This document shows, in pieces, positions 2,253 through 15,140 of a stretch of 15,141 nucleotides of DNA; the stretch's first letter is position 1, and each line of letters starts with the position of its first letter. Under the pieces are notes generated by a model. That model searched no databases and was not told the DNA's origin. It saw nothing but the letters and a program-made list of their open reading frames with translations. Source of the stretch: Candidatus Micrarchaeota archaeon (GTDB lineage Archaea > Micrarchaeota > Micrarchaeia > Norongarragalinales > SBBD01); assembly GCA_043813365.1 (NCBI GenBank), contig JBDRLB010000073.1:1-15141 (forward strand). Direction: 5' to 3'. The position numbers and the translations under genes were made by a program.

Positions 2253-3419
2253 ATGGCTGTGCAGTTCGAGTTGGAGCAGGATGGAAGGCTGATTGTGAAG
2301 GATTTAATTTCCGTGCAGGCACTGGACCGGGGTTTTTTCGGGAAAGAGCCAGAGCATACGAAGGCGCAGCTTGTTCTGATGCCGGAAGAAGCGCTTTACC
2401 TCATGGATGTAAGGAATGCGGAAGCAGTTTTTAAGGGAAAAACCGTAACTTTCAACCGTGTTGCAAAGGAATTCATCAAGAACAAGAAATTCCTCGCACG
2501 CTACTTTTGCTACAGGGATTGGAGGGATCGTGGAATCATTGCCAGGCCCATGAGCGAAGCTTCCGGCAATTATGGAAGGAGCCCGGTTGTCCGCTATCCC
2601 TCGAAAGATTTCACTTCCCCCCAAGTGAAAAGCAAGGCGCTGTTCTTTTCGGACGATTTGATCTCCATCATTGATGACGATGAGGAGGGCAGGCAGCTTT
2701 ACGAGAGCGCGTGGTTCGGCCAGCATGGGACTTACAAGGCGAAGAAGCATGGGCGCTATTTGAAGCTGGATGCTTATGAGACGCTTTTCCTGATGAAGCA
2801 CGGAGGAATGACTGCGAACATTGGCGACAAGAAGATCATTAAGGAGTGCATGAAAAGAAGGGGCGATTTCCTCGCGCTTTACGAGGTATATGAGGATTGG
2901 AGGCTGCGCGGTTTCGTTGTTAAGAGCGGCTTCAAATTCGGCACGCATTTCCGGCTTTATTTCCCGGGCGCCTCGCCCAATTTGGCGAATGATGAATGGA
3001 TGCACTCAAAGCACGTGATACATGTTTTCCCGAGGAGCGCAAAGATGCTGATTTCGGAGTGGTCGCGCGCAATCAGGGTTGCGCATGGAGTGAAAAAAAC
3101 ATTTATCTTGGCAATTCCAGGTGAGAAGAAGCAGCAGCATGCGGAGCTTGATTTCCTGCTTTACCATAGGAAAAAAGGAGGCTTGATTGAGAACCCCAAG
3201 GAGGATAAGCCAAAATTCGTGATGCTCGCGCTCTCTGAAGAGGAGGAGATCGGCGGGGAAGAGCTCGCGGAATCCATTGCTAAAGCTAAGAGCATGGGCC
3301 TCGACCTGATACTTGCGATCTGCGACCGGGAGACCAGCGTAACCTATTACAGAGTCAAAAGAGTGGAGCTTCCTAAGAGCAAGTACGAGTACTACGAAAT
3401 AGAATGGAAGCAGCCCTGA
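2253..3419 (+). CDS. endA: tRNA-intron lyase (tRNA splicing endonuclease), three-unit epsilon2-like type
   Basis: 388 aa. N-terminal-domain motifs are duplicated (LMPEEALYL...YRDWRDRG and LDAYETLFL...VYEDWRLRG). Catalytic unit is VKSGFKFGTHFRLY(236)...H(251)SKH...R(275)VAHGVKK(282). C-terminal unit ends YYEIEW. GTYK loop at residues 159-162. SD GAGGAG at 2240-2245. Confidence 0.95.
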   Translation: MAVQFELEQDGRLIVKDLISVQALDRGFFGKEPEHTKAQLVLMPEEALYLMDVRNAEAVFKGKTVTFNRVAKEFIKNKKFLARYFCYRDWRDRGIIARPMSEASGNYGRSPVVRYPSKDFTSPQVKSKALFFSDDLISIIDDDEEGRQLYESAWFGQHGTYKAKKHGRYLKLDAYETLFLMKHGGMTANIGDKKIIKECMKRRGDFLALYEVYEDWRLRGFVVKSGFKFGTHFRLYFPGASPNLANDEWMHSKHVIHVFPRSAKMLISEWSRAIRVAHGVKKTFILAIPGEKKQQHAELDFLLYHRKKGGLIENPKEDKPKFVMLALSEEEEIGGEELAESIAKAKSMGLDLILAICDRETSVTYYRVKRVELPKSKYEYYEIEWKQP

Positions 3420-3521: not shown

Positions 3522-4859
3522 TTACTTTTTCTTATTCTTCATCTCATTCAAGTGGCGGATGCGCTTCTGTATCAGCTCCTTTGTGCCAATATCCTTCCGG
3601 TGGAATACGGGGCCCTTAATTTGCCTGACGGTGTGCTCCGCAACCGCCTCGGCGGCTTCGATAGTATCGCCAATCCCAACGCATGCAACAGCCCGGGAGG
3701 TTCCCATTTTCAGTTTCCAGGGGTATTCTGGGTCAACGCTTTCAACTGCACCGAGGTAATATTTGCTCGTTGAATTTGCGAGAGACTCGATGTCAATCAC
3801 TTCGCCCTTCTTGGGGTTTTCGGGGTAGCCTTCGGGGACCGCGTATTTCACAACTGTCGCTTTTTCCTCGAAATGCAGTTTCAAGTGGGAAAGCCGGCCG
3901 TGCACAACTGCTTCGCAAACCTCCACAAAGTCATTCTTCATTATGGGAAGGATGTTCATGATTTCGGGGTCGCCGAAGCGCGCGTTGTATTCTATCAATT
4001 TCACTCCGTCAGCAGTAAGCATGAAGCCGCCGTACATTATTCCGTGGAAATATTCGTTCAATTCCTCCTTAAGGGCAAACGCGATTTTGTGGGTCATGTG
4101 CTGCGCCTCCTGCAGGTGCTCTTTCGTCAGGAAAGGCAGCAGATGATTTGGAGCCGAATAGGAGCCCATGCCGCCGGTATTCGGGCCGAGGTCGCCCTCA
4201 TATGCGCGCTTGTGGTCCTGCGCTATTGGAGGGGCAAGGACCGTCCTGCCGTCGGTGAAGAACTGGACTGAAAACTCCTCGCCCTCGAGTTTTTCCTCAA
4301 TCACGACCTTTGCCTTCCCATCAAGGATGGATTTGGAGTATTCGATTGCCTCCTCAATTGTTTTCATGTGCTCGCCGAAAACCTTCACTCCCTTGCCGCC
4401 TGTTAGCCCATCGGGCTTCACGACGAATTGCTTGAGCTCGAGCATGTAGTCCTTCATCCCATCCGGGGAATCGAAAACCTGGTGTGCCGGCGAACCTTCA
4501 ATCTGGTAGCGGTCCATGAGGTTGCGCGTGAATGATTTGCTGCTCTCCAATCTGGCAAGCGATTTCTTCGGCCCGAATGAGGGTATTTCAAGTTCCTCAA
4601 GCACGTCGGCGATGCCGATTGCAATTGCATAATCGGGCGAGAGGACCGCAAATTCCGGCTTCACCTGCTTCGCATATTTCCGGACCGAATCGAAATCGTC
4701 GATTTTCCCAAGGAAGTGGCTCTTCGATTTTGCAATGACAGCAGGGTTCGGGCTCTGTATGAATGAATGAAGTTCCGAATCCGCGCTTTTCTGGATCGCT
4801 TCGGCAAGGCAGTCGGCCCGCGCAGTGCTTCCTAGCGCTACAAGGAGTATTTTTTTCAT
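3522..4859 (-). CDS. purD: Phosphoribosylamine--glycine ligase (GAR synthetase)
   Basis: 445 aa with LESSKSF, VVKPDGLTGGKGV, IEEKLEGEEFS, QDHKRAYEGDLGPNTGGMGSYS, EYNARFGDPE, YAVPEGYP and HRKDIG motifs; the motif variants are archaeal-type. Confidence 0.95.
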   Translation of the reverse strand: MKKILLVALGSTARADCLAEAIQKSADSELHSFIQSPNPAVIAKSKSHFLGKIDDFDSVRKYAKQVKPEFAVLSPDYAIAIGIADVLEELEIPSFGPKKSLARLESSKSFTRNLMDRYQIEGSPAHQVFDSPDGMKDYMLELKQFVVKPDGLTGGKGVKVFGEHMKTIEEAIEYSKSILDGKAKVVIEEKLEGEEFSVQFFTDGRTVLAPPIAQDHKRAYEGDLGPNTGGMGSYSAPNHLLPFLTKEHLQEAQHMTHKIAFALKEELNEYFHGIMYGGFMLTADGVKLIEYNARFGDPEIMNILPIMKNDFVEVCEAVVHGRLSHLKLHFEEKATVVKYAVPEGYPENPKKGEVIDIESLANSTSKYYLGAVESVDPEYPWKLKMGTSRAVACVGIGDTIEAAEAVAEHTVRQIKGPVFHRKDIGTKELIQKRIRHLNEMKNKKK

Positions 4860-4938: not shown

Positions 4939-6543
4939 CTAAGCAATATCCCTTCCGTGCTCGAGTGGGCGCTTGGTGGCATCCTCCAAATCCCGAAGTT
5001 GCTTGATCCGCTGCTCCAGCTCATTCTTCAGTTCCTTCTGCTGCTGCGAATATTCCTTCTGCATGCTTCTAAAAGTCTGCTCCAAATCGTACATATGGTG
5101 CTCCAGCTTGATGAGGGACATGTCGAAGGAGATAAGCTTCTCATTGGTGTTCTTCTGGAAGCCCGTGAGATCGTTGCGCGTAAGGATGTTCGCGGAATGC
5201 GTCTTCAGCCCGTAAACCTCCTTCACTAGGTCGCGCATCACGGAGGTGTTGTCTGCTGTGTCGCTCACAACCGAATCAAGCTTCCGGCTCGCCCTGTTTA
5301 CCAGCTCCTCCCCTTTCGTTTCAACGGTGCGGATGCGCTTTTCAAATTCGGATTTCATGCTTTCAAGACCGGAAATATCCTTTTCCATCGAATCCAGCCG
5401 CTTGAAGGATTTTTCAGTGTCGGCAGAGGATTCCTCCAGCTCCTTCATGTCCTTCTGGAGGCCTTCGATGAGCTTTTCGCCCTTTTTCATCTCGGCTTCA
5501 AAATCCTCCAATTGCGAGACGCGGGATTCGAAATCCTTCTTGAACGCGGCATTCTCGGATGCTATTCCCTTGATCAGCTCCGCTTTAAGCGAATCCACCT
5601 TCTCGGCAGCATGCTCGACTGTTTCCACTTTCTTAGTTATTTCCGCTTTGGCCTCCTCCATATTCTCATCCAAATCCCTCTTGAGGTCAGCTTTCATCAT
5701 CTCCGACTTGGCAACCGCCTTGTCTACCTCGATTATCTTTGAATCGAGCTCATTGCCGTACTCCTTCAGGTCGCCTTTCAATTTGAGGAAGTCGGATTTG
5801 CTTGCCGCGCCCTCCACCTTCACCTTGAAGATGTTGAATTCCTTTGAAATGTCCTTGAATTCGTTGTCCAGCTCCTTTATCCTGTCGAAAACTTTCTGGT
5901 ACTCGAAGAAGTGCTGCTGCAAGTCCGCGTAAATCGCTTCCACCTTGTCGGCGCGCTGCTCCATCTTTGCCTGCACCTGCATCGCCGTTGAGAGCTCCCT
6001 CTGGACCTGCTCATTCAGCTTCAATATGGTGTCGGAGCCGCGTATCGCCTCCGTTTTCTGCCGGAGATCCTTCAGTTCGTCGACAAGCTTCTGCTGCATC
6101 AGCGTGACCTTTTCCTCAATGGCCTTGGTCGCATCAATCCTCATCTCGAGCTTCTTGACGTTGTTCATAAGGCGCTCGGGCTGCACCATCTGTATCAGCT
6201 CGACGGCCTTTTCCGCCTGCATCTTTATTTGCGCCCCATCCCTCTCCGAATCAAGCACCGTTGCGCGCATTTCCCCAATCTGCTCGGAAAATTTGCCGAA
6301 GCGCTCGTCGGAAACCTGCTTCGACTGCTTCAGCAGCTCAATCTGCACTTTCAGAAGCTCCACATCCTTCTCCAGCTTCAGCACGGTGCGGTCAGCTGAT
6401 TGCACCGAAGGCTGCACTTCAACTGGCTGCGAATTCGCCTGCTCCTCGTACCGCTCCTCGGACGACTTCATCATGAGATCCTCCTTGGCCTGCAGCTCCT
6501 CTTCCGTCGGCTCCTTTTTCAGCACCTTGTCGAAAACGCCCAT
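4939..6543 (-). CDS. Long coiled-coil protein of unknown function with a possible N-terminal amphipathic helix
   Basis: 534 aa, E/K/L/Q-rich heptads from about residue 55 to the end. No Cys, TM, Walker motif or SMC hinge was seen. The N-terminus is MGVFDKVLKK. Confidence 0.9.
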   Translation of the reverse strand: MGVFDKVLKKEPTEEELQAKEDLMMKSSEERYEEQANSQPVEVQPSVQSADRTVLKLEKDVELLKVQIELLKQSKQVSDERFGKFSEQIGEMRATVLDSERDGAQIKMQAEKAVELIQMVQPERLMNNVKKLEMRIDATKAIEEKVTLMQQKLVDELKDLRQKTEAIRGSDTILKLNEQVQRELSTAMQVQAKMEQRADKVEAIYADLQQHFFEYQKVFDRIKELDNEFKDISKEFNIFKVKVEGAASKSDFLKLKGDLKEYGNELDSKIIEVDKAVAKSEMMKADLKRDLDENMEEAKAEITKKVETVEHAAEKVDSLKAELIKGIASENAAFKKDFESRVSQLEDFEAEMKKGEKLIEGLQKDMKELEESSADTEKSFKRLDSMEKDISGLESMKSEFEKRIRTVETKGEELVNRASRKLDSVVSDTADNTSVMRDLVKEVYGLKTHSANILTRNDLTGFQKNTNEKLISFDMSLIKLEHHMYDLEQTFRSMQKEYSQQQKELKNELEQRIKQLRDLEDATKRPLEHGRDIA

Positions 6544-6638: not shown

Positions 6639-9600
6639 TCATGCATCCAGCTTTTTCTCATCAGGGGGCTTCTTTTCCCCGGAAGGCTTTTCCTCAGCTG
6701 CTTTTTCCGGCTCGGTCCCCTTTTCAGGCTCGGGCTTCTTTTCCTCCGGCTGTTTTTCCGGTTCCGGCTCCTTATCCGGCTCAACCTGTTTTTCCACCTT
6801 CTTGTAAGGCAAATCGATGCTTCCAATCCCCCAATCAAGCACATCCTGCCTTCCGGAAGGCTTCTCAAGCCGCTTCTTCTTCATGCTCAAGATTTTCTGG
6901 TCGAGCGACTCGATGTATATTTCAACTATATTGAATGCGCCCTTCTTAACTTTATCCCTCGCAAGGTTGATTTCGAGCTCGAGGTCGAGGACGTCCATTC
7001 CGGATTCGCGCAGTCTCTCCATCTCCTGCTCCAGCGACTCGACTTTGTTGTTGTATTTCTCATACTGGTCGAGTTCCGTGTCCGAAAGGCGCATCACATT
7101 GTGCAGCAATGGCCTGAAGGAAACGAAGTACGGCTGGCCGTTGTTGTATTCGGAGTTCTGCATCATGCCCGAGCCGATGCTCTCCTTCACGATGGAGCGT
7201 GCCGCATCCTCCCCGTACTTGAGCTTGAGGCGCTCGAGGTCTCCCTCGTATTTCGTCCGCATCTGTATTTCGGTGCCGATGTTCGCCTTTATCTCTCCCA
7301 CGAAATCGGAAAGCACCTGTGAGATGAGCACCATGCCGACTCCCCATTTCCTGAATTCACGCGCGCCCCTCTCGATCTGGATGAAGCCTTCGCCATGGCC
7401 GCCGAACTTCGTCAGCAGCCTGTGCACCTCATCGTAGACGCAAAGCATCTTCAATTGCGGGGATTCGGGCAAACCAGCTGCAAATACCTGTTTCACGGTG
7501 TTGGCGATGAATGTCTCATGGTCAGCAAGGGAAAGCTTGTTCATCACGAAAACGGTGATTTCGCCGGGCTTCATGAGCTTCTTGATGTCAATTGGCATGT
7601 TCGGATCCCTTACTACGTAAATGTTGCCCTTGAATGCGCGCGCCTCGTCCGTGTTCATCCCGAACTTCTTGAAGCTCATGAGCATGTCACGGTTCTTCTG
7701 AGGCCTCAGGTAGCCAGTCCATTGCGCAGTCGGGTCGAAAACCAGCACGGCAGTGTTCTTCTGGAGTGCCTCCTCCACGATTACCTGTGCGGCAACTGTT
7801 TTTCCGGAGCCGGTTGCGCCTGCAATGAGCGTGTGCGTCTGCAGCTTGTCAGCAGGGACGAATGCACGCACCTTCGTTTCTGCAATAAGGCCCAGATAGC
7901 CGGCTCGTGGCCCAGGTTCGGGCAGCTTTGTGAAATCAACTTTCGCAACGTACCTGCGTTTCTTCTTCGCGGTAGTGTATTGCCGGTAATAAGTGAACCC
8001 GGATGCGAGCAGGACGATGATGAGGGGGATGAATTGCCATACGGAAAGCATGCCAAACAGCTTCGCACTCCAGAGGGATGCCTGCACCTTCACGTAAGTG
8101 ATGGCCGAAAGCTCCTTCTTCTTCACGGATTCGCCGGAAGTGTATTCATAGATGCCGCGCACCACATACCTTCCATTGCGCACCTGGGATGGCACCTTGA
8201 TTGATTTTATGCTGTTGTAAGTGGTTTCGAAATTCACGGGCTCGGGATCCTTCCTCTCCAATACGATGTCGGCAACGGGATCGACCAGCTCCAGTACCAG
8301 GTTGCCCTTGATTTCCTTTGTCTCGCCCATGTTATAGAGGTTTACCTCGACCCGGAGCGTTTCGCCGGGATCGAGCGAATCAACAAGAGGCTGCAGCCGC
8401 ATGTCTATTGCGCGCTCCTCCCGCTGCTCAAGGATGCGGACCGTAATGGGAATGGTGACTTTCCCGACTTCGTTTATCAGCTGCAGTTCGCCGAAGTAAT
8501 TGCCCGACTTTGCCGAGTCGGGCGCGGATGCGAAAACAAGCAGGTCGGTCTCATGCAGGATGTTGAGCCGGAATTTCGTCCTTGCAACGCTGATGAACGG
8601 GGCTGCGGAGCCCGAGAGCTTCACCTCGATTTCAGAGGAGAAGTTGAGGCCGTTCTTGAGGTGGATGGAGGATTGCAGCTCCTCGCCGGGGTAAAGCTCG
8701 AAAATCAGGGACTGCACACCGGTCTCAAGCCCGGTTTCCTTTGTCTTATTATCCTGAAGGAGCTTCTTGAGCTCCTCAATTTGCGCGCTCACGTTGTCGG
8801 ATTTGGGCTCGGGAGTTGGTAGCGGTGTGGGGGCTGGGTAATAGTTGCTGCCGGAACTGCTAGAAGAACCGCCGCTCGGGGGTATGACTATTGTGGTGGG
8901 GGTTGGGGTGGGAATTGTGTACTGCACAAGAGCAAACGCGTGCGTTGTGTTGGCGAACGAGCTGAAGTTCGCGGAAATGATATTGGAGATCGTGTTCAGT
9001 GTCGCATTCGTGAGATGGGACCAGCTCTGAATGCAGGTCCGTGTTGCAAACGTGTAATTAGTGCATTGGTAAATCCGGAGGACGGATTCGTCGGTTATGC
9101 TTGCAAGCAGGGTCGCGTACTCGATGATGATGGTGCCGTTGGAAGGCATTTCAGATATGACTCCGAAGCCTGCTTTTGCCCCCAATATCTGCGAGCTGAT
9201 GTCGGAACCTGAGAAATTATCGAGCGTTATGAAACTTTGGTTGATGGTGAAGAAGTTCACATCCGATACGGTGACATTGTAGAAGAGGAATTTCATCCCT
9301 ACGGTGTAGGTTTTTGCCCTCAGGGTTTTGCTGTAATAGCCGCTTCCGTTCGTGCTGAAATTATCGTAATTGCCCTCGGTAACGTTCGTTATGGAGAAAT
9401 TGGCCGGAATGGGGGAACCTTCAAGGTTCTCTATCTGGCCGGAGAACGTGCGCAAGAGGAATATCTGGAAATTACCGGTAAGGGAGGCGTTTGCATTCCC
9501 AGTCGTGTCATTTGTGATGTAGGTTATCAGATAGTTGCCGATATCGGTGAAATTGAACGTTTCGGAAAACAATTCAGAAGTGGAGTTGTAGGGCAGGGTG

Positions 9601-12600
9601 TAATTCGCGATTGTTGTGTTGGGAAGTGTGATCTGCGCGGTCGTGTTTGCAATCTGGTAGTTGTCCGTAGCGTTCACAACGAGAGTGATGTTCGTCGCAG
9701 TATCGGTATCATTGGATATCTCATATATCATCTGCGGCGCTGTGATGTCCCTGTAGAAAACTGCGGACGCACTGGTTGTATTCTTTACCAAGTAGCTTGT
9801 GCCAGTGGAGTAGTTGGCAACAATGGTCAGGTTATAGGAACGCGCATCCGCCAGGGATGGGGCGGAGCATGAAACCAGCGTCTCATTGCCGGAGGTAGTA
9901 TTGCTAATCAAGGTGCAGGGGGTGGAGTTGACGTACATGGTCCAGGTTGTATTGGAGGTGGTATTGTCGCCGCCAAAAATGAGCAGAAGGGTTTCATTGA
10001 TCGGGTCTCCTGCGATGACCTCAGCAGGCGCGGAGATGTTCAGTACCATCAATTCAACTGTGAAGGATCTGAAGGTTATGTTTACAATTGTGCTCGTGCT
10101 CGAATTTGATTCCGAGACGTTCAGGTACCCGACATAGCGCAGGTTGTTGTCCGGAGCTGTGAAATTAATCTCGATGCCATATGCCTGCGTGGTGTTCAGT
10201 CCCTTGGAGGCGTTCAGGAGGTTGGAGAAGGAAGTCATGTTCCCCGTAAGGGAGAAGGCGAAATTGAGCAGCGCATCGCCGGTTCCTATATTCGCGATTG
10301 CAGTGGTGTTGTCAACATGGGTTTCGCCGGAAATTCCATCTATTGTGAAAAGATTGGGGGAGAGCAGCCACGTGTTATTGTACGGGATCGTAAGGTTCGC
10401 CGTGAAGTTCCTTGAAATACCGCCGGAGGTAACGTTGACCGTGAAATTGCGGAAACCGGAAATGGCGCCGTAGGCTGCGGAGATGTTCATGCTGATGTTC
10501 GCAATTTCATTGAGCAATACGCTTCCTGAAGTTTGGTTGAAAGTAACTGAAAAGTTCGAATATGCGCTAGTATAACTAACGGAATAGCTCGTGATATTGT
10601 CATTCCCGATGGGGGTGATTGTGAACCATTCAGTCTGGTTGGTGCCGTGCTGCAGTGCAAGGGACGAGTTTGAAGCGGAAAGGCTGAAATCCGGGTTGGA
10701 GAGCACGGTTATCGTTATATTGGGGCCCCACACGGCCTCTATGGAGCCGTTTGGCTGCGTGAATGTCGCATTGGGGGTGAAATAATAAATGCCAAGCGAG
10801 CGCTGGCCTATTGTGATGTTGAACGTTGAAAGGTTGCGAGTGCTGCCATTAAGGAATGCGATTGTCTGGATGGGCTGGAAGCTCCAATTTGCGAGCGTGT
10901 CCACTGCTGAGGGATCGCGGGTGAACATCCCGGAGAGGTTCAGGGAATAAGCGTTGACCAGGTCCGTATTGTTGGTTGATATGTTGAGAAGTTTGTAGGA
11001 GTCGGCATCCTTCTGCACTCCCGAAACATTGGTGGAATTGCCGGAAATATTGAGTGAAGTCGTAGGTATGACCGTGAAGCTGAAGCCGGTGAAATTTTCC
11101 TGCCCTAAGGCATCCCTTATCTGGAACGAAACGTTATATACGCCGCTCTCATTTGTCGCATTGAAAAGCGCCCAGATCATCTGTATGTCCTTGCACGAGC
11201 CGCCGCAAATCGCAGGATTGAGCGTCTGGTTTACAACCCCAAAGGTTTCGTTGACATTGCCCGGCCGGGAGATATTGAAAATTGCTGAAGACATGTTCAA
11301 CCCATAGGATTCGTCATCCGTTGCAGTGACATTGAGGACAACGGATTGGTTGAATTCGATGTAGCTTCGGAGGAGTGTGCCCCAATAAGTTGATGCATTG
11401 CGGAATTGCGGGAACGCGTTCGTGATGTTGAAGTAAAGCACCGTCGAATTGGATGAGGGCAGGGCACTCGAATTTGCCATGGTTATCTGCACGGCGTACC
11501 CATATGTTATGTTCGCGATAGTCGAGCCTTGCTGGTAAATGTAGAAAATTGTTGAGGTGTTCTTGAGTGCTGTTACTGTCGAAGGATTTCCCGGTGCGGG
11601 CCCCTGGCCTTGTGCGCAGAATGTCTCAAATGTGGGCCCTCCTCCGATGCAGCTTGCCCTTCCGCCGTAATCAGAATAGGAGATGTCAAGGGTGATGTTG
11701 CTGTTCCCGGTATTGTTGATTGTGATCATGCCCAATACGCCCGATTCCTCCAGCCCGAATTCCTTAAGCTGGTTGCCGTAGGGGAGGTAATACCAGCTCA
11801 TGTTTGTAGGGACGTGCACCGTAATGGGGATCGTCTTGTTCGCATTGTAGCCTGAAATGTTTATTGAGCCGGTGTAATTGCCCGGCGGGTGGCCCCAGGG
11901 GATGCTGATATTCATGTAAATCGGGAAATCGACTCCCTCAGTTATGTTGGCAATGGACGAGGTGCTGAGCGATACCCATTCTGCTGGAAGCGTCCCGTTG
12001 ATGAAAGTAACCGAGAGGTTGACCAGCTTGATGTTGCCAGTTGAGTTGAGGTAGAATACGCTCACATTTTTCATCCCGTGCTGGGTTGTGAAGTTCATGA
12101 AATCAACCGCGTAAAGGGATGGCGACACGTTTACGGTGACGTTCACATAGGATGTGATGCCTTCGCCGGTTGTGATTTTCAGGAGGGCGGAAAACACGCC
12201 TGCAATGTAATCAAGGACGGAAACCAGAACCTCCAGCACGCCGGTTGTGCTTTCTGTAATCAACGACCATGAATCCGTAACGGGATCCCATGCCGCATCG
12301 CCCGAATCAATCGATATCCAGCCGCTTGGGATGGTGCTGTTGATTATGGTTACGGAAACGTTGGAGATGGGCGAATTGCCCGTGCTTGAGACGTTTACTT
12401 CAACGGTCTGGTTGGTGGAGAGTGTCTGGTTGATGACAGTGATGGTCGGAATGACCTCCATCTGGGGGTTTACGAAAATGCTCAAGTTCAGGTAGGTGCT
12501 TGTTGAATTCACACCGTTCACAATGTCATCGGCGGTTAAGTTGATCAGGCCGGAATACATGCCGGTGGTGTAGGGCGCGCTTAACAGCACATCCACCTGG

Positions 12601-15140
12601 AAAAAGCCCGTAAATGTCGGGAAAATAGTGCCCAACGACATGTCGGGGGTTATGGTCACCCAGGAAGAGTTCAGGGTTCCGGAAATCAGGGTAGGAGTTA
12701 CATTCGCAAGGTTGATGTTGCCGGTGTTCGTGACAGTCACAATGGTGGAGTTGACGGTGCTCAGGGAATCGGTGATGTTGAGGCTGATGACATCTATTGA
12801 CATGGAAGGCGTAGTGTCCACATTCAGGCGGGAGGTGTTCGTCATTGTTGTATTAGTCTGGTTGTTGTTCGTCCAATTTGCGTGCCAGGTAATTGTCCAT
12901 GAACCCGCTCCCAGGTTCCCAACAGTGATGTTGAAAGTTGCATAGCACGAATCATTGTATGGGAGGGAGGAGCTGCACGTTGTCGATAGGCGTTCAATAT
13001 TGACAGCAGCGGGTTTGGCAGTATAATTCAGGAATGGGTAGAACATGGTAGCGTTCTCGCGGTTCCTGAGAGTGACATTGTGTAGCAGCCATGTGTTCGC
13101 TGGAGTGTTTTCATCGAGGGAATACACCCATCCGTATGCAAGTGCCTCCTCGAAATAATTGATGAACGATGCAGAGGTAGCTTCCAGGAATGCGGATGAA
13201 TTTCCTACGGTTATATTCACGGAATAGTTGCCGCCCTTCAGTTCAGCTGGGAAGAGGAAGCCAACTGTGCAGTTCCCATTTAGCGTCGTGCAGCTCTTGG
13301 TCAAGGTTGAGCCGGTTAGGATGTTTGTAAGGTTAATGGAGGCGTTGCCGTTGGCTCCATGCATTGCAGTCGCATTTATCTCGTTGAGGAAGGCTGTGAC
13401 GGAACCGTTTGAGGAGAAAAGGATGCGGTATTTCATATAGCGCGCGGAGTTGTTCGCAACAATGGTGCCGGTCCGATCCGAAAGATTGACGTACGGAGAA
13501 TAGGTAATGTTATCAAAGGAAACAGCTGCCTGAACGATTAGGGAGGCGTTCGTGAATGTTGCCGAATCCCAGCTTATTTTCCAGAGGGCATTGTTGAACC
13601 CTGCATCCACCACGCGTTCAAATGAGCCGGAGGGGTAATAAGTGGTGTTTGCAGGCGCATCTGAGAAATCAAGGCTCATGTTCGCTGCCCAGTATGTGAT
13701 ATTGGCGTTGTTTCCGTTCAGGAAATCTGCGGCCGAAGTGTCAAAAGTGTAATTGCTTGCGCTGAGCATCCCGAATATCGCGGTCACGTTCAACTTACCG
13801 TTCTTGTCATAGGATTGGTTGGGGGAAAAGTAGCCTGCGCTGGTGTTGGCCCAGAATTGGAGCTGGAAGGTGCCATTGGAACCCAGATTGCCCGATGTAT
13901 CGTTCACGAAAACAACGTAATTGGCAATGCCTGCTGGATGGGAGGTTACATTGTAATAGCAATTGCCGCCCTCCCTTTGCATCGTAAAGTTGGCATAAGT
14001 CCCGTTGCCCCATTGGAGAATGCAGTTGTTGGTATTGAGCTCATTGAACGTGAAGTTGATGAACGCCCAATTTACATAGGTTCGGGAGTTGTTGCCTAAG
14101 GTGGGGGAAACCAGCGTTATATTCGCTGGCGTTACCGTATCGATGAACACATTCCGCGTTTCCGTTTTGTTCGAATTGGAGGCGGAATCGTTCATGAAAA
14201 CGTAGTACGAATAGCTTCCTTCTGAAAGGGAGGTTTTGTTGACATAGCAGTTGACGGAGGTGCAAGTTAGCGATTCGTTGGCGCCATTCCAGTTGAGGAT
14301 GGTTGCGTTGCGGTTGGCTTCTGTATATGTGACGTTGATGTAGAGCCAGTTGCGGGAGATGTTGGCATTGGTGTGGAGAGTTGGGGAGGCGAATTGCAGG
14401 AGCGGGTAAGTCGTGTCTACGGTTATGAAGAATTTGGCGCTGGAGTTGTAGTTGCTTGCGGAATCGTTCGCGAAAATAGAGTAATTCCAGTTCCCATCAG
14501 GCTGGTTTGTAAGGTTGAGGTAGCAGTTGTTCCCCACTCTTGTCATCGAAACGTTCTGAAGGGACGAATTCGACCACTGCACCCAGCAATTGTAGGGGTT
14601 CGTTTCAGAGAATGTGAAATTCAGGTACACCCAGCTGACATTGGCGGAAGCAAGATTCCCGAGTGTAGGCGTAACCGGCTGGAAGTTGGTCGGAGGGTTG
14701 CCATCCATTGATATGAAGAATGTGCCGTTCGCGTTTGTCAAGCCTGCTGAATCATTGACAATTATGGTGTAATTCCAGTCCCCATCTGGTTGTGCAGTTA
14801 GGTTGAGGTAGCAGTTGGCACCTATCCTTGTCATGGAGTAATTGGATAGGGAGCCGTTGTTGTACTGCAAGATGCAATTGTTGGGGTTGGTTTCTGTGAA
14901 TGTTGCGTTCACGTAAAGCCAGTTGTTGTTCGTAAACGAGTTGTTTTGCAAGGTGGGAAGGACCATATTGAGGTCGGATGGGGCGACCGTGTCGATGCTG
15001 ATGAAGAAGGTTCCGTTGGAATTGGAATTGCCGGTGGTGTCGTTCACAATTACGGTGTAGTTCCAGTCGCCATCGGGCTGGTTGGTGAGGTTGAGGTAGC
15101 AGTTGGTGCCTATCCTTGTCATGGAGTAATTGGATAGGGA
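6639..15140 (-). CDS. Giant cell-surface glycoprotein (tandem Ig-like domains) fused through one TM helix to a C-terminal HerA/VirB4-like (DUF87-type) ATPase; 5' end lies outside the window
   Basis: Uninterrupted frame of >2830 codons, open past ATG 15122 (upstream codons read SLSNYS, part of a repeat unit). N/T/S-rich beta-domain region, then P/T/S/G linker, TM plus basic stop-transfer, Walker A GATGSGKT, Walker B CVYDE and REFRKWGVGMVLISQ. Confidence 0.93.
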   Translation of the reverse strand, partial: SLSNYSMTRIGTNCYLNLTNQPDGDWNYTVIVNDTTGNSNSNGTFFISIDTVAPSDLNMVLPTLQNNSFTNNNWLYVNATFTETNPNNCILQYNNGSLSNYSMTRIGANCYLNLTAQPDGDWNYTIIVNDSAGLTNANGTFFISMDGNPPTNFQPVTPTLGNLASANVSWVYLNFTFSETNPYNCWVQWSNSSLQNVSMTRVGNNCYLNLTNQPDGNWNYSIFANDSASNYNSSAKFFITVDTTYPLLQFASPTLHTNANISRNWLYINVTYTEANRNATILNWNGANESLTCTSVNCYVNKTSLSEGSYSYYVFMNDSASNSNKTETRNVFIDTVTPANITLVSPTLGNNSRTYVNWAFINFTFNELNTNNCILQWGNGTYANFTMQREGGNCYYNVTSHPAGIANYVVFVNDTSGNLGSNGTFQLQFWANTSAGYFSPNQSYDKNGKLNVTAIFGMLSASNYTFDTSAADFLNGNNANITYWAANMSLDFSDAPANTTYYPSGSFERVVDAGFNNALWKISWDSATFTNASLIVQAAVSFDNITYSPYVNLSDRTGTIVANNSARYMKYRILFSSNGSVTAFLNEINATAMHGANGNASINLTNILTGSTLTKSCTTLNGNCTVGFLFPAELKGGNYSVNITVGNSSAFLEATSASFINYFEEALAYGWVYSLDENTPANTWLLHNVTLRNRENATMFYPFLNYTAKPAAVNIERLSTTCSSSLPYNDSCYATFNITVGNLGAGSWTITWHANWTNNNQTNTTMTNTSRLNVDTTPSMSIDVISLNITDSLSTVNSTIVTVTNTGNINLANVTPTLISGTLNSSWVTITPDMSLGTIFPTFTGFFQVDVLLSAPYTTGMYSGLINLTADDIVNGVNSTSTYLNLSIFVNPQMEVIPTITVINQTLSTNQTVEVNVSSTGNSPISNVSVTIINSTIPSGWISIDSGDAAWDPVTDSWSLITESTTGVLEVLVSVLDYIAGVFSALLKITTGEGITSYVNVTVNVSPSLYAVDFMNFTTQHGMKNVSVFYLNSTGNIKLVNLSVTFINGTLPAEWVSLSTSSIANITEGVDFPIYMNISIPWGHPPGNYTGSINISGYNANKTIPITVHVPTNMSWYYLPYGNQLKEFGLEESGVLGMITINNTGNSNITLDISYSDYGGRASCIGGGPTFETFCAQGQGPAPGNPSTVTALKNTSTIFYIYQQGSTIANITYGYAVQITMANSSALPSSNSTVLYFNITNAFPQFRNASTYWGTLLRSYIEFNQSVVLNVTATDDESYGLNMSSAIFNISRPGNVNETFGVVNQTLNPAICGGSCKDIQMIWALFNATNESGVYNVSFQIRDALGQENFTGFSFTVIPTTSLNISGNSTNVSGVQKDADSYKLLNISTNNTDLVNAYSLNLSGMFTRDPSAVDTLANWSFQPIQTIAFLNGSTRNLSTFNITIGQRSLGIYYFTPNATFTQPNGSIEAVWGPNITITVLSNPDFSLSASNSSLALQHGTNQTEWFTITPIGNDNITSYSVSYTSAYSNFSVTFNQTSGSVLLNEIANISMNISAAYGAISGFRNFTVNVTSGGISRNFTANLTIPYNNTWLLSPNLFTIDGISGETHVDNTTAIANIGTGDALLNFAFSLTGNMTSFSNLLNASKGLNTTQAYGIEINFTAPDNNLRYVGYLNVSESNSSTSTIVNITFRSFTVELMVLNISAPAEVIAGDPINETLLLIFGGDNTTSNTTWTMYVNSTPCTLISNTTSGNETLVSCSAPSLADARSYNLTIVANYSTGTSYLVKNTTSASAVFYRDITAPQMIYEISNDTDTATNITLVVNATDNYQIANTTAQITLPNTTIANYTLPYNSTSELFSETFNFTDIGNYLITYITNDTTGNANASLTGNFQIFLLRTFSGQIENLEGSPIPANFSITNVTEGNYDNFSTNGSGYYSKTLRAKTYTVGMKFLFYNVTVSDVNFFTINQSFITLDNFSGSDISSQILGAKAGFGVISEMPSNGTIIIEYATLLASITDESVLRIYQCTNYTFATRTCIQSWSHLTNATLNTISNIISANFSSFANTTHAFALVQYTIPTPTPTTIVIPPSGGSSSSSGSNYYPAPTPLPTPEPKSDNVSAQIEELKKLLQDNKTKETGLETGVQSLIFELYPGEELQSSIHLKNGLNFSSEIEVKLSGSAAPFISVARTKFRLNILHETDLLVFASAPDSAKSGNYFGELQLINEVGKVTIPITVRILEQREERAIDMRLQPLVDSLDPGETLRVEVNLYNMGETKEIKGNLVLELVDPVADIVLERKDPEPVNFETTYNSIKSIKVPSQVRNGRYVVRGIYEYTSGESVKKKELSAITYVKVQASLWSAKLFGMLSVWQFIPLIIVLLASGFTYYRQYTTAKKKRRYVAKVDFTKLPEPGPRAGYLGLIAETKVRAFVPADKLQTHTLIAGATGSGKTVAAQVIVEEALQKNTAVLVFDPTAQWTGYLRPQKNRDMLMSFKKFGMNTDEARAFKGNIYVVRDPNMPIDIKKLMKPGEITVFVMNKLSLADHETFIANTVKQVFAAGLPESPQLKMLCVYDEVHRLLTKFGGHGEGFIQIERGAREFRKWGVGMVLISQVLSDFVGEIKANIGTEIQMRTKYEGDLERLKLKYGEDAARSIVKESIGSGMMQNSEYNNGQPYFVSFRPLLHNVMRLSDTELDQYEKYNNKVESLEQEMERLRESGMDVLDLELEINLARDKVKKGAFNIVEIYIESLDQKILSMKKKRLEKPSGRQDVLDWGIGSIDLPYKKVEKQVEPDKEPEPEKQPEEKKPEPEKGTEPEKAAEEKPSGEKKPPDEKKLDA
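6642..6790 (-). repeat. Low-complexity E/K/P-rich C-terminal tail of the giant protein
   Basis: EPDKEPEPEKQPEEKKPEPEKGTEPEKAAEEKPSGEKKPPDEKK. Confidence 0.75.
7080..7900 (-). other. FtsK/HerA-superfamily P-loop ATPase domain (HerA/VirB4-like)
   Basis: HTLIAGATGSGKT (Walker A at 7820-7797), VLVFDPT, LCVYDEVH (Walker B at 7445-7422) and AREFRKWGVGMVLISQ (RKxG arginine finger plus conserved Q). Confidence 0.9.
7986..8051 (-). other. Single transmembrane helix of the giant protein (type I topology)
   Basis: MLSVWQFIPLIIVLLASGFTYY is followed by RQYTTAKKKRRY (positive-inside rule). Confidence 0.85.
8800..8915 (-). repeat. Pro/Thr/Ser/Gly-rich flexible linker
   Basis: PTPTPTTIVIPPSGGSSSSSGSNYYPAPTPLPTPEPKS. 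Confidence 0.8.
11703..12800 (-). repeat. Tandem ~110-114-aa Ig-like domains with an (N/S)TGN motif
   Basis: TNTGN (12731-12717), SSTGN (12389-12375), NSTGN (12047-12033) and NNTGN (11717-11703) are spaced 342, 342 and 330 nt. The first three units share a later (L/I)xxxW(V/I)(T/S) and G(M/V/N)(Y/F)(S/T)(G/A) pattern. Confidence 0.75.

Follow-up and report, generated by a model that had tools for sequence, protein, structure and literature searches.

What does a protein do whose giant, adhesin-like outer part is joined in one chain, across a single membrane helix, to a motor-type ATPase? The question is raised by contig JBDRLB010000073.1 (C73) of a Candidatus Micrarchaeota archaeon (assembly GCA_043813365.1), which is analysed here over its entire length of 15,141 nucleotides and is referred to as the window; the genome comprises 1.34 Mb in 78 contigs and is 88.6% complete. 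The largest gene of the window, at 6639..15140 on the minus strand, very probably encodes a DPANN member of the SPEARE family of giant proteins, an assignment that concerns identity and anatomy, not mechanism. DPANN archaea rely on host cells, and SPEARE-type proteins are the most conspicuous candidates for the molecules by which they make and use this contact. Their genes can occupy several percent of a tiny genome, and the genome studied here appears to hold two of them, one for 5,144 amino acids (aa) or more and the other for 9,225 aa or more. The window adds no new architecture; what it adds is a Micrarchaeota-type member of the family, evidence for HerA over VirB4/TraG as the nearest relative of its ATPase, and a conserved partner gene encoding a coiled-coil protein, which is a concrete candidate for a second component of the giant-protein system.

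SPEARE proteins were named by Hamm 2019 (PMC6642349) in Nanohaloarchaeota, with lengths of up to 8,553 aa, and were described as mostly extracellular, with a transmembrane (TM) segment towards the C terminus; their conserved intracellular portion was taken for a type III restriction enzyme. The same paper states a laminin-G domain for all SPEARE ectodomains, lists SPEARE-like sequences in Woese-, Aenigm- and Micrarchaeota and in Altiarchaeales, and reports that the protein was seen by proteomics. In the reading of Reva 2023 (PMC10266531), where the nuclease and protease interpretations were discarded and laminin-G is not treated as defining, these proteins consist of a Sec signal, about 75 immunoglobulin (Ig)-like domains, a TM segment, a cytosolic "VirB4/TraG-like ATPase" and a coiled coil, with a second VirB4/TraG-type ATPase gene and a proteasome activator encoded downstream, and they are proposed to bind the host and to form secretion channels. 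Examples given in these two papers include NAR1_1133 from Ca. Nanohaloarchaeum antarcticus (5,998 aa), proteins of Ca. Nanopetramus SG9, and the further giants SVXNc_0300 (9,409 aa) and BNXNv_0298 (8,880 aa).

Since both papers describe it, the architecture of the window protein is not new, and a trans-envelope machine almost identical to the one suggested for it has been proposed before. The original prediction for this stretch, made from its letters alone, knew of no functional description of such an architecture; that statement has to be withdrawn, the family having been named in Hamm 2019 (PMC6642349) and a secretion role having been proposed in Reva 2023 (PMC10266531). As far as the available parts of these accounts go, the family is named yet not characterised in function. 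A protein listed as a SPEARE match by Hamm 2019 (PMC6642349), RLG14629.1 (P0045 in our set), aligns with aa 2310-2760 of the window protein at E 1.6e-139, with 51% identity and 97% coverage. Like the published SPEARE proteins, the window protein has a giant extracytoplasmic N-terminal part of adhesion-type beta domains and one TM segment near the C terminus, followed by a conserved cytoplasmic P-loop ATPase and a coiled coil. It differs from the nanohaloarchaeal members in its source, a Micrarchaeota-like lineage of groundwater-type samples and no halophile; in the gene directly downstream, which encodes a coiled-coil protein and not a second VirB4/TraG-type ATPase; and in its genome, where no gene for the VirB4 N-terminal domain was detected.

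How much of the gene does the window contain? As originally proposed, 6639..15140 is a single intact open reading frame, uninterrupted over 2,833 codons to its stop; it has no start codon, its 5' end being left open where the frame continues past the end of the contig. The anatomy first described for it, namely a sequon-rich ectodomain, one TM helix, an intact ATPase, a coiled coil and a charged tail, was recovered, whereas the frame itself turned out to be only the C-terminal part of the gene. In the following, features of this protein are given by residue of the frame and by window position, always on the minus strand. The contig break falls inside a tandem array of Ig-like modules of ~96 aa, and another contig of the genome, C70, carries a 2,311-codon frame that begins with MRGEVYLLAPFGLALLAILSLFSISG, a hydrophobic signal-like segment, and terminates, with its 3' end open, in 13 copies of the same module. 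The link between C70 and C73 comes from homologues: in P0123 (5,743 aa) and P0124 (5,286 aa), both full-length, the C70 front is followed by the repeat array and then by the window frame, to which they are collinear over ~2,800 aa at 56-58% identity, so that one broken gene is the most economical reading. Judged from these sequences, C70 and C73 probably carry the two halves of one gene, 5,144 aa or more in length, which the assembler split inside the repeat array. Within this array, at 14821-15108, a contig of the public DNA run X1 "goes back 288" bases, the module being ~288 nucleotides long; this joint fits an ambiguity in repeat copy number, and it was probably this ambiguity that made the contig break here.

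Two further fragments, C46:3-12575(-), of 4,191 aa and open at its 3' end, and C52:27601-42702(-), of 5,034 aa and open at its 5' end, look like another giant gene of this type, 9,225 aa long or more. The C52 paralogue has the same fusion, with an ATPase 51% identical to that of the window. Next to the front of the first gene, C70 also encodes a 101-aa ribbon-helix-helix protein (C70:16504-16809; also at L048:7505-7810(-); Pfam UPF0175, E 1.8e-11, ParD-like), divergently oriented and lying ~130 bases ahead of where the giant gene probably starts; the protein could be a regulator of that gene.

Is the fusion of adhesin, TM helix and ATPase real? It is, and not an assembly chimera, because it recurs in a paralogue of this genome and in hundreds of DPANN proteins. 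With the TM and ATPase part as the query, a protein search limited to a length band of 1,558-4,958 aa, in which 7,987 candidates were scored, gave 339 matching proteins at E <= 0.001, the best being 81% identical and labelled Micrarchaeota; the labelled sources of the matches are Micr-, Woese-, Pace-, Aenigm-, Nanohalo- and Nanoarchaeota. An exhaustive phmmer search of 1.84 billion cluster representatives gave 881 matches at E <= 0.001, of which 367 are at <= 1e-30, and among the matches listed (the best 150 of the 881) protein lengths run from 356 to 6,253 aa, with the match on the C-terminal side in nearly all. A set of 223 relatives was drawn from both searches and is biased to long proteins by the length band of the first; 213 of them cover the whole ATPase core, a TM-like stretch lies at most 100 aa before the core in 204 of the 210 relatives with more than 70 aa ahead of it, and the length ahead of the core varies from 2 to 5,655 aa (median 1,589). 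Homologues with the same fusion, whose absence would have spoken against the original prediction, are thus abundant.

The alternative, that adhesin and ATPase genes from different molecules were joined during assembly of the metagenome, had been raised with that prediction and gains something from the fragmentation of the assembly into 78 contigs, from the position of the gene at a contig end within repeats, and from the 288-base joint of the X1 contig. Against it stand the same fusion in the C52 paralogue and, across independent assemblies, in hundreds of proteins, the collinearity of homologues for ~2,800 aa across the junction, and an AlphaFold2 model that is confident from the beta-sandwich through the TM helix to the ATPase. 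Low-depth contigs of four public DNA runs (three studies) match some stretches of the gene at 99-100% identity, and one from run X3 crosses the TM-coding stretch (7974-8133) without differences, which lends weak support; no RNA data set was listed as containing the sequence. Checked in this way, chimerism at the junction is so improbable that it can practically be dismissed.

The only strong hydrophobic segment in the 2,833 aa is the TM helix itself (aa 2361-2385, 7986..8060), which is followed by KKKRR and was identified by hydrophobicity, AlphaFold2 and flanking charge. The ATPase is placed inside the cell, as first suggested, because of the charge bias around this helix (two Lys or Arg in the 15 aa before it, seven in the 15 aa after), because N-glycosylation sequons are confined to its N-terminal side (175 ahead of it, 0 in the 448 cytoplasmic residues), and because an ATPase requires cytosolic ATP. 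The AlphaFold2 model of aa 2131-2770, built on a 40-sequence alignment, reaches a mean predicted local distance difference test score (pLDDT) of 90.7 and consists of two beta-sandwiches, the TM helix, a RecA-like core and three long helices.

Which kind of ATPase is it? The HerA-clade RecA-like core occupies aa 2410-2686 (7083..7913), as delimited by Pfam, a profile search against the PDB, AlphaFold2, Foldseek and VIA-align. It carries a Walker A motif, GATGSGKT, at aa 2441 (7797..7820) and a Walker B motif, VYDEVH, at aa 2568 (7422..7439), both recognised by motif and from the alignment of 40 relatives, and the sequence REFRKWG at aa 2594-2600 (7341..7361), a candidate arginine finger that aligns with REGRKFG of Sulfolobus HerA (4d2i); further motifs are "FDPT" and ISQ at aa 2606. 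These motifs occupy invariant or near-invariant columns among the 40 aligned relatives, and for Walker A, Walker B and REFRKWG this holds in all 40 sequences. In HerA, the REGRKFG motif holds the trans-acting arginine finger, and the retention of REFRKWG in 40 of 40 sequences fits a ring whose neighbours complete each other's active sites.

The classification as a HerA/VirB4-like ATPase of the FtsK/HerA superfamily, in a DPANN host, had been read from the motifs and agrees with both the domain models and the fold ranking. In Pfam, the DUF87/HerA central domain (E 3.8e-11) and HerA_C (5.3e-7) are over their cut-offs, accompanied by weak matches of ResIII, TrwB_AAD_bind, DEAD and FtsK around the P-loop. 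TrwB_AAD_bind scores 24.3 bits against a cut-off of 20.5, yet over only 47 of 387 positions around Walker A, and FtsK_SpoIIIE stays under its gathering score (E 0.001, 19.0 bits against 24, 32 residues only). The NCBIfam matches of TraD, CedD and TraC are sub-threshold, with ~50 residues each, those of TraD and CedD lying around Walker A and the TraD models being far under their cut-offs. When the profile of the 40-member family was compared with PDB sequences, Sulfolobus HerA 4d2i came first (1.5e-9), followed by anti-phage HerAs, YjgR and, last, DotL (8.5e-4), and no VirB4 chain appeared at E <= 0.01. By structure, 4d2i is again the top match in Foldseek (3.6e-12), and VIA-align ranks highest the HerA proteins of Sulfolobus solfataricus (4d2i, Z 26.3) and Thermococcus (HerA-NurA, 9x1m, 25.3) and the anti-phage HerA 8xaw (24.9), with root-mean-square deviations (rmsd) of 2.7-2.9 over ~250 residues. 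Below these come the C-domain of DndH (24.5), the C-domain of VirB4 (4ag6_B, 24.1, rmsd 2.6 over 235 residues), TrwB (20.4), the FtsK motor (18.6) and EssC (17.7).

Within the FtsK-HerA superfamily, the ATPase is therefore placed in the HerA/VirB4 branch, as a clade of its own; by profile and fold ranking its nearest relative is HerA, with which it shares Walker A, Walker B, the RE-x-RK-x-G motif and a DUF87 match over the cut-off. It is not placed in HerA proper because it leaves no room for a HAS-barrel, scores far under the cut-offs of the curated HerA models, and belongs to a genome with a separate canonical HerA-like gene. HerA proteins carry an N-terminal HAS-barrel, whereas the giant protein is membrane-anchored, bears a giant ectodomain, and has its TM helix ~55 aa before Walker A in the place of that barrel. 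The NCBIfam equivalog helicase_HerA scores 15.7 bits against a cut-off of 970, and HerA_Thermprot 16.9 against 800; the separate canonical HerA-like gene, on contig C62, resembles the window ATPase at the level of motifs only (BLASTP E 3e-6, 56 aa). VirB4 shares the fold of its C-domain but is set apart by its N-terminal CagE/TrbE/VirB domain, PF03135. TrwB belongs to the same superfamily branch and, like the giant protein, has a membrane anchor ahead of the ATPase, although with two TM segments instead of one. FtsK/SpoIIIE and, in type VII secretion, EssC/EccC are also membrane-anchored ring ATPases of this superfamily, from which the giant protein differs by lower fold scores, by a single ATPase domain and by the absence of a multi-pass membrane domain. 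Contrary to type IV secretion and to the CedB/CedD systems of archaeal DNA import, it has no type IV secretion or Ced genes as neighbours in the window.

Does the giant protein act alone? Directly downstream of it, on the same strand and after 95 bases, lies a gene (4939..6543, minus strand) for a coiled-coil protein of 534 aa without a TM segment, which was characterised by AlphaFold2, Pfam, hidden Markov model (HMM) searches and locus comparison. This protein is cytoplasmic, and its pairing with the giant gene is conserved. The AlphaFold2 model is all-helical with a mean pLDDT of 61.6; Pfam returned only scattered coiled-coil families under their cut-offs, NCBIfam no family, and the profile search against the PDB only coiled-coil look-alikes at E >= 0.0046, while the matches in the ESM Atlas are confined to unnamed archaeal clusters. 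Searched against the whole genome, an HMM of the partner core (~aa 55-260) finds two frames and no others, one immediately behind each giant gene; the second of them (C52:24744-27578), which was outside the training set of the HMM, matches at E 3.9e-39. Of 17 related loci taken from reference genomes, 13 include DNA downstream of the giant gene, and in 11 of these 13 (L009-L012, L014, L017-L021 and L023) a partner homologue lies on the same strand within ~2.5 kb; none was found in the remaining two, L013 and L016.

The pairing is accompanied by some variation in gene order. In four Woesearchaeota loci, a small and weakly conserved frame of 171-301 aa stands between the giant gene and the partner (L011:8438-8950, L012:7829-8590, L019:8992-9894 and L023:8139-8960, by locus comparison) and has no counterpart in the window. 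In L020, the same position is taken by a second DUF87/HerA-type ATPase of 471 aa (L020:7531-8943, plus strand), a nanohaloarchaea-like order that is absent from the window. A complex prediction between the ATPase with its helices (residues 270-635 in the numbering of the 40-sequence alignment) and the partner core (residues 45-300 in that of its own alignment) scored 0.00 in two runs, which speaks neither for nor against binding. The main text of Hamm 2019 (PMC6642349) contains neither "coiled" nor "operon", and section 11 of Reva 2023 (PMC10266531) is without the partner; in these parts of the published accounts of the family, neither the conserved coiled-coil partner nor the placement nearest to HerA was found.

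On the outer side of the membrane, the protein is N-glycosylation-sequon-dense and beta-rich. Residues 1-2084 (8889..15140) form the sequon-dense ectodomain, with 13% Asn and 24% Ser+Thr, and aa 1-2130 contain 173 N-x-S/T sequons, whereas 62.3 +/- 6.5 (maximum 79) were counted when these residues were shuffled 500 times. The Ig-like (Big_13-like) module of ~96 aa is present in one partial and four further copies at aa 1-433 (13842..15140; module HMM i-E 6e-23 to 4e-52), that is, five copies in the window in addition to the 13 on C70. The "Ig stalks" of the original prediction have therefore to be divided: for the ~96-aa modules the name stands, since Big_13 matches the C70 fragment at E 5.6e-18, together with a right-handed beta-helix region, but in the window frame Big_13 reaches only 8.9e-4, under its cut-off, so that the label appears to be backed mainly for the modules and less for the remaining ectodomain. 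Neither a beta-propeller nor a protease-like region was found by Pfam in the window frame or the C70 fragment. A Pro/Thr/Ser-rich linker, recognised by its composition (aa 2085-2130, 8751..8888), leads to the two membrane-proximal beta-sandwiches of the AlphaFold2 model (aa 2131-2352, 8085..8750; pLDDT mostly >90), which are Lys/Glu-rich and sequon-poor, with two sequons in aa 2131-2360. At the other end of the protein, the ATPase is followed by three long, coiled-coil-like helices in the AlphaFold2 model (aa 2687-2760, 6861..7082; model helices 557-582, 588-602 and 606-629) and, by composition, by a charged tail rich in Pro, Glu and Lys (aa 2761-2833, 6642..6860); a helical region at the C terminus is conserved across the family.

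How might these parts work together? The glycosylated ectodomain would, rather probably, serve as a stalk that binds the surface of the host cell. By analogy with its solved relatives, the ATPase would be expected, with a similar degree of confidence, to form a hexameric ring under the membrane, and six stalks would therefore be gathered into a bundle. ATP hydrolysis in this ring may then move or pull a polymer at the contact site; this polymer could be DNA or else a protein, for instance an effector or the coiled-coil partner. Transport across the membrane by the ring is a possible but somewhat unlikely form of this activity, and the downstream coiled-coil protein might be the cytoplasmic scaffold or the substrate of the ring, a role that falls a little short of probable. 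Taken as a whole, the proposal that the giant adhesin with its HerA-type ATPase and the partner are the central parts of a machine that is shared across DPANN archaea and sits where they touch the host is tentative, and we regard it as unlikely in this full form. If it were true, DPANN archaea would possess an ATP-driven machine that takes up or delivers DNA or protein or that exerts a pull on the host, and it would belong to none of the known classes of type IV secretion, Ced/Ted DNA import and type VII secretion but would form a separate one.

Several points weigh against this proposal or against parts of it. One TM helix per protomer yields a bundle of six helices at most, which is narrow for DNA or protein, and the neighbours of the giant gene in the window include none for a channel-forming membrane protein. 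The ~55 aa between the end of the TM helix (2385) and Walker A (2441), modelled as two short strands and one short helix, leave no space for the HAS-barrel; PF03135 is absent from the giant protein (Pfam, E <= 0.1) and was not detected in the 88.6% complete genome (E <= 0.01). Pfam shows no laminin-G domain either in the window frame (at E <= 0.1) or in the C70 fragment (at E <= 0.01), with the central part of the gene missing from the assembly, whereas PF13385 does occur in many homologues of the giant protein. The break between C70 and C73 is spanned by no read or contig among the short, low-depth contigs of the four DNA runs. Finally, in the available parts of the literature no functional experiment on the SPEARE family was found.

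The closest published alternative is the type IV secretion-like "straw" proposed in section 11 of Reva 2023 (PMC10266531), in which Ig-like domains bind the host and a VirB4/TraG-like ATPase drives effectors through the stalk. The close fit to the VirB4 C-domain fold given above, the TrwB_AAD_bind score over its cut-off, and the second DUF87 ATPase after the giant gene in one of the 13 related loci (L020), as reported for nanohaloarchaea, are all in line with it. However, HerA outscores VirB4 by fold, the PDB sequence matches at E <= 0.01 are HerA-type proteins and DotL, the TrwB match is restricted to 47 residues around Walker A, and PF03135 as well as any other type IV secretion-type gene is missing, the former from protein and genome within the limits just given and the latter from the window. 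Strings of beta-sandwiches are, to our knowledge, not known to form a hollow conduit, and this version of secretion is consequently considered quite improbable. The older SPEARE reading of Hamm 2019 (PMC6642349), where a type III restriction enzyme on the inner side breaks down host DNA after its import and the ectodomain bears a serine protease, finds an echo in a Pfam ResIII match at aa 2432-2577 (E 1.7e-5, 25.3 bits). ResIII is nevertheless a helicase-type P-loop model that is weaker here than DUF87 and HerA_C, no nuclease or protease family occurs in the 2,833 aa or the C70 fragment, and the fold matches are HerA, VirB4 and TrwB. An identity as restriction enzyme is contradicted by these domain and fold results, Reva 2023 (PMC10266531) also rejects it for the named SPEARE proteins, and the chance that it applies here is very slight.

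A device without transport has to be taken more seriously, even though it is again unlikely as a single explanation. In this case, the ring ATPase and the partner would anchor, cluster or exert force in the cytoplasm, thereby controlling adhesion strength, stalk spacing or contact geometry, or the ring would remodel the partner. Such a role would suit a single TM helix per protomer with no adjacent channel gene in the window, the tight pairing of the ATPase gene with that of a long coiled coil which, lacking any TM segment, stays in the cytoplasm, and the conserved helical region at the C terminus. Contrary to this, all characterised relatives among the structural matches are, by their entry titles, DNA or protein translocases. 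For the machine proposed above, a non-transport role (anchoring, clustering, or pulling via the partner) is therefore about as likely as membrane transport.

Two other genes of the window deserve mention. At 2253-3419, on the plus strand, a tRNA-splicing endonuclease of 388 aa is encoded in which the catalytic and the N-terminal domain each match twice in Pfam; multi-unit single-chain forms of EndA are known from ARMAN/Micrarchaeota. Within purD (3522-4859, minus strand), one contig in each of the four DNA runs has a joint that skips 216 bases (3986-4203), with 20 matching letters on its shorter side and long loose ends, and this joint probably reflects contigs of another organism that share a conserved stretch of purD, rather than a deletion variant.

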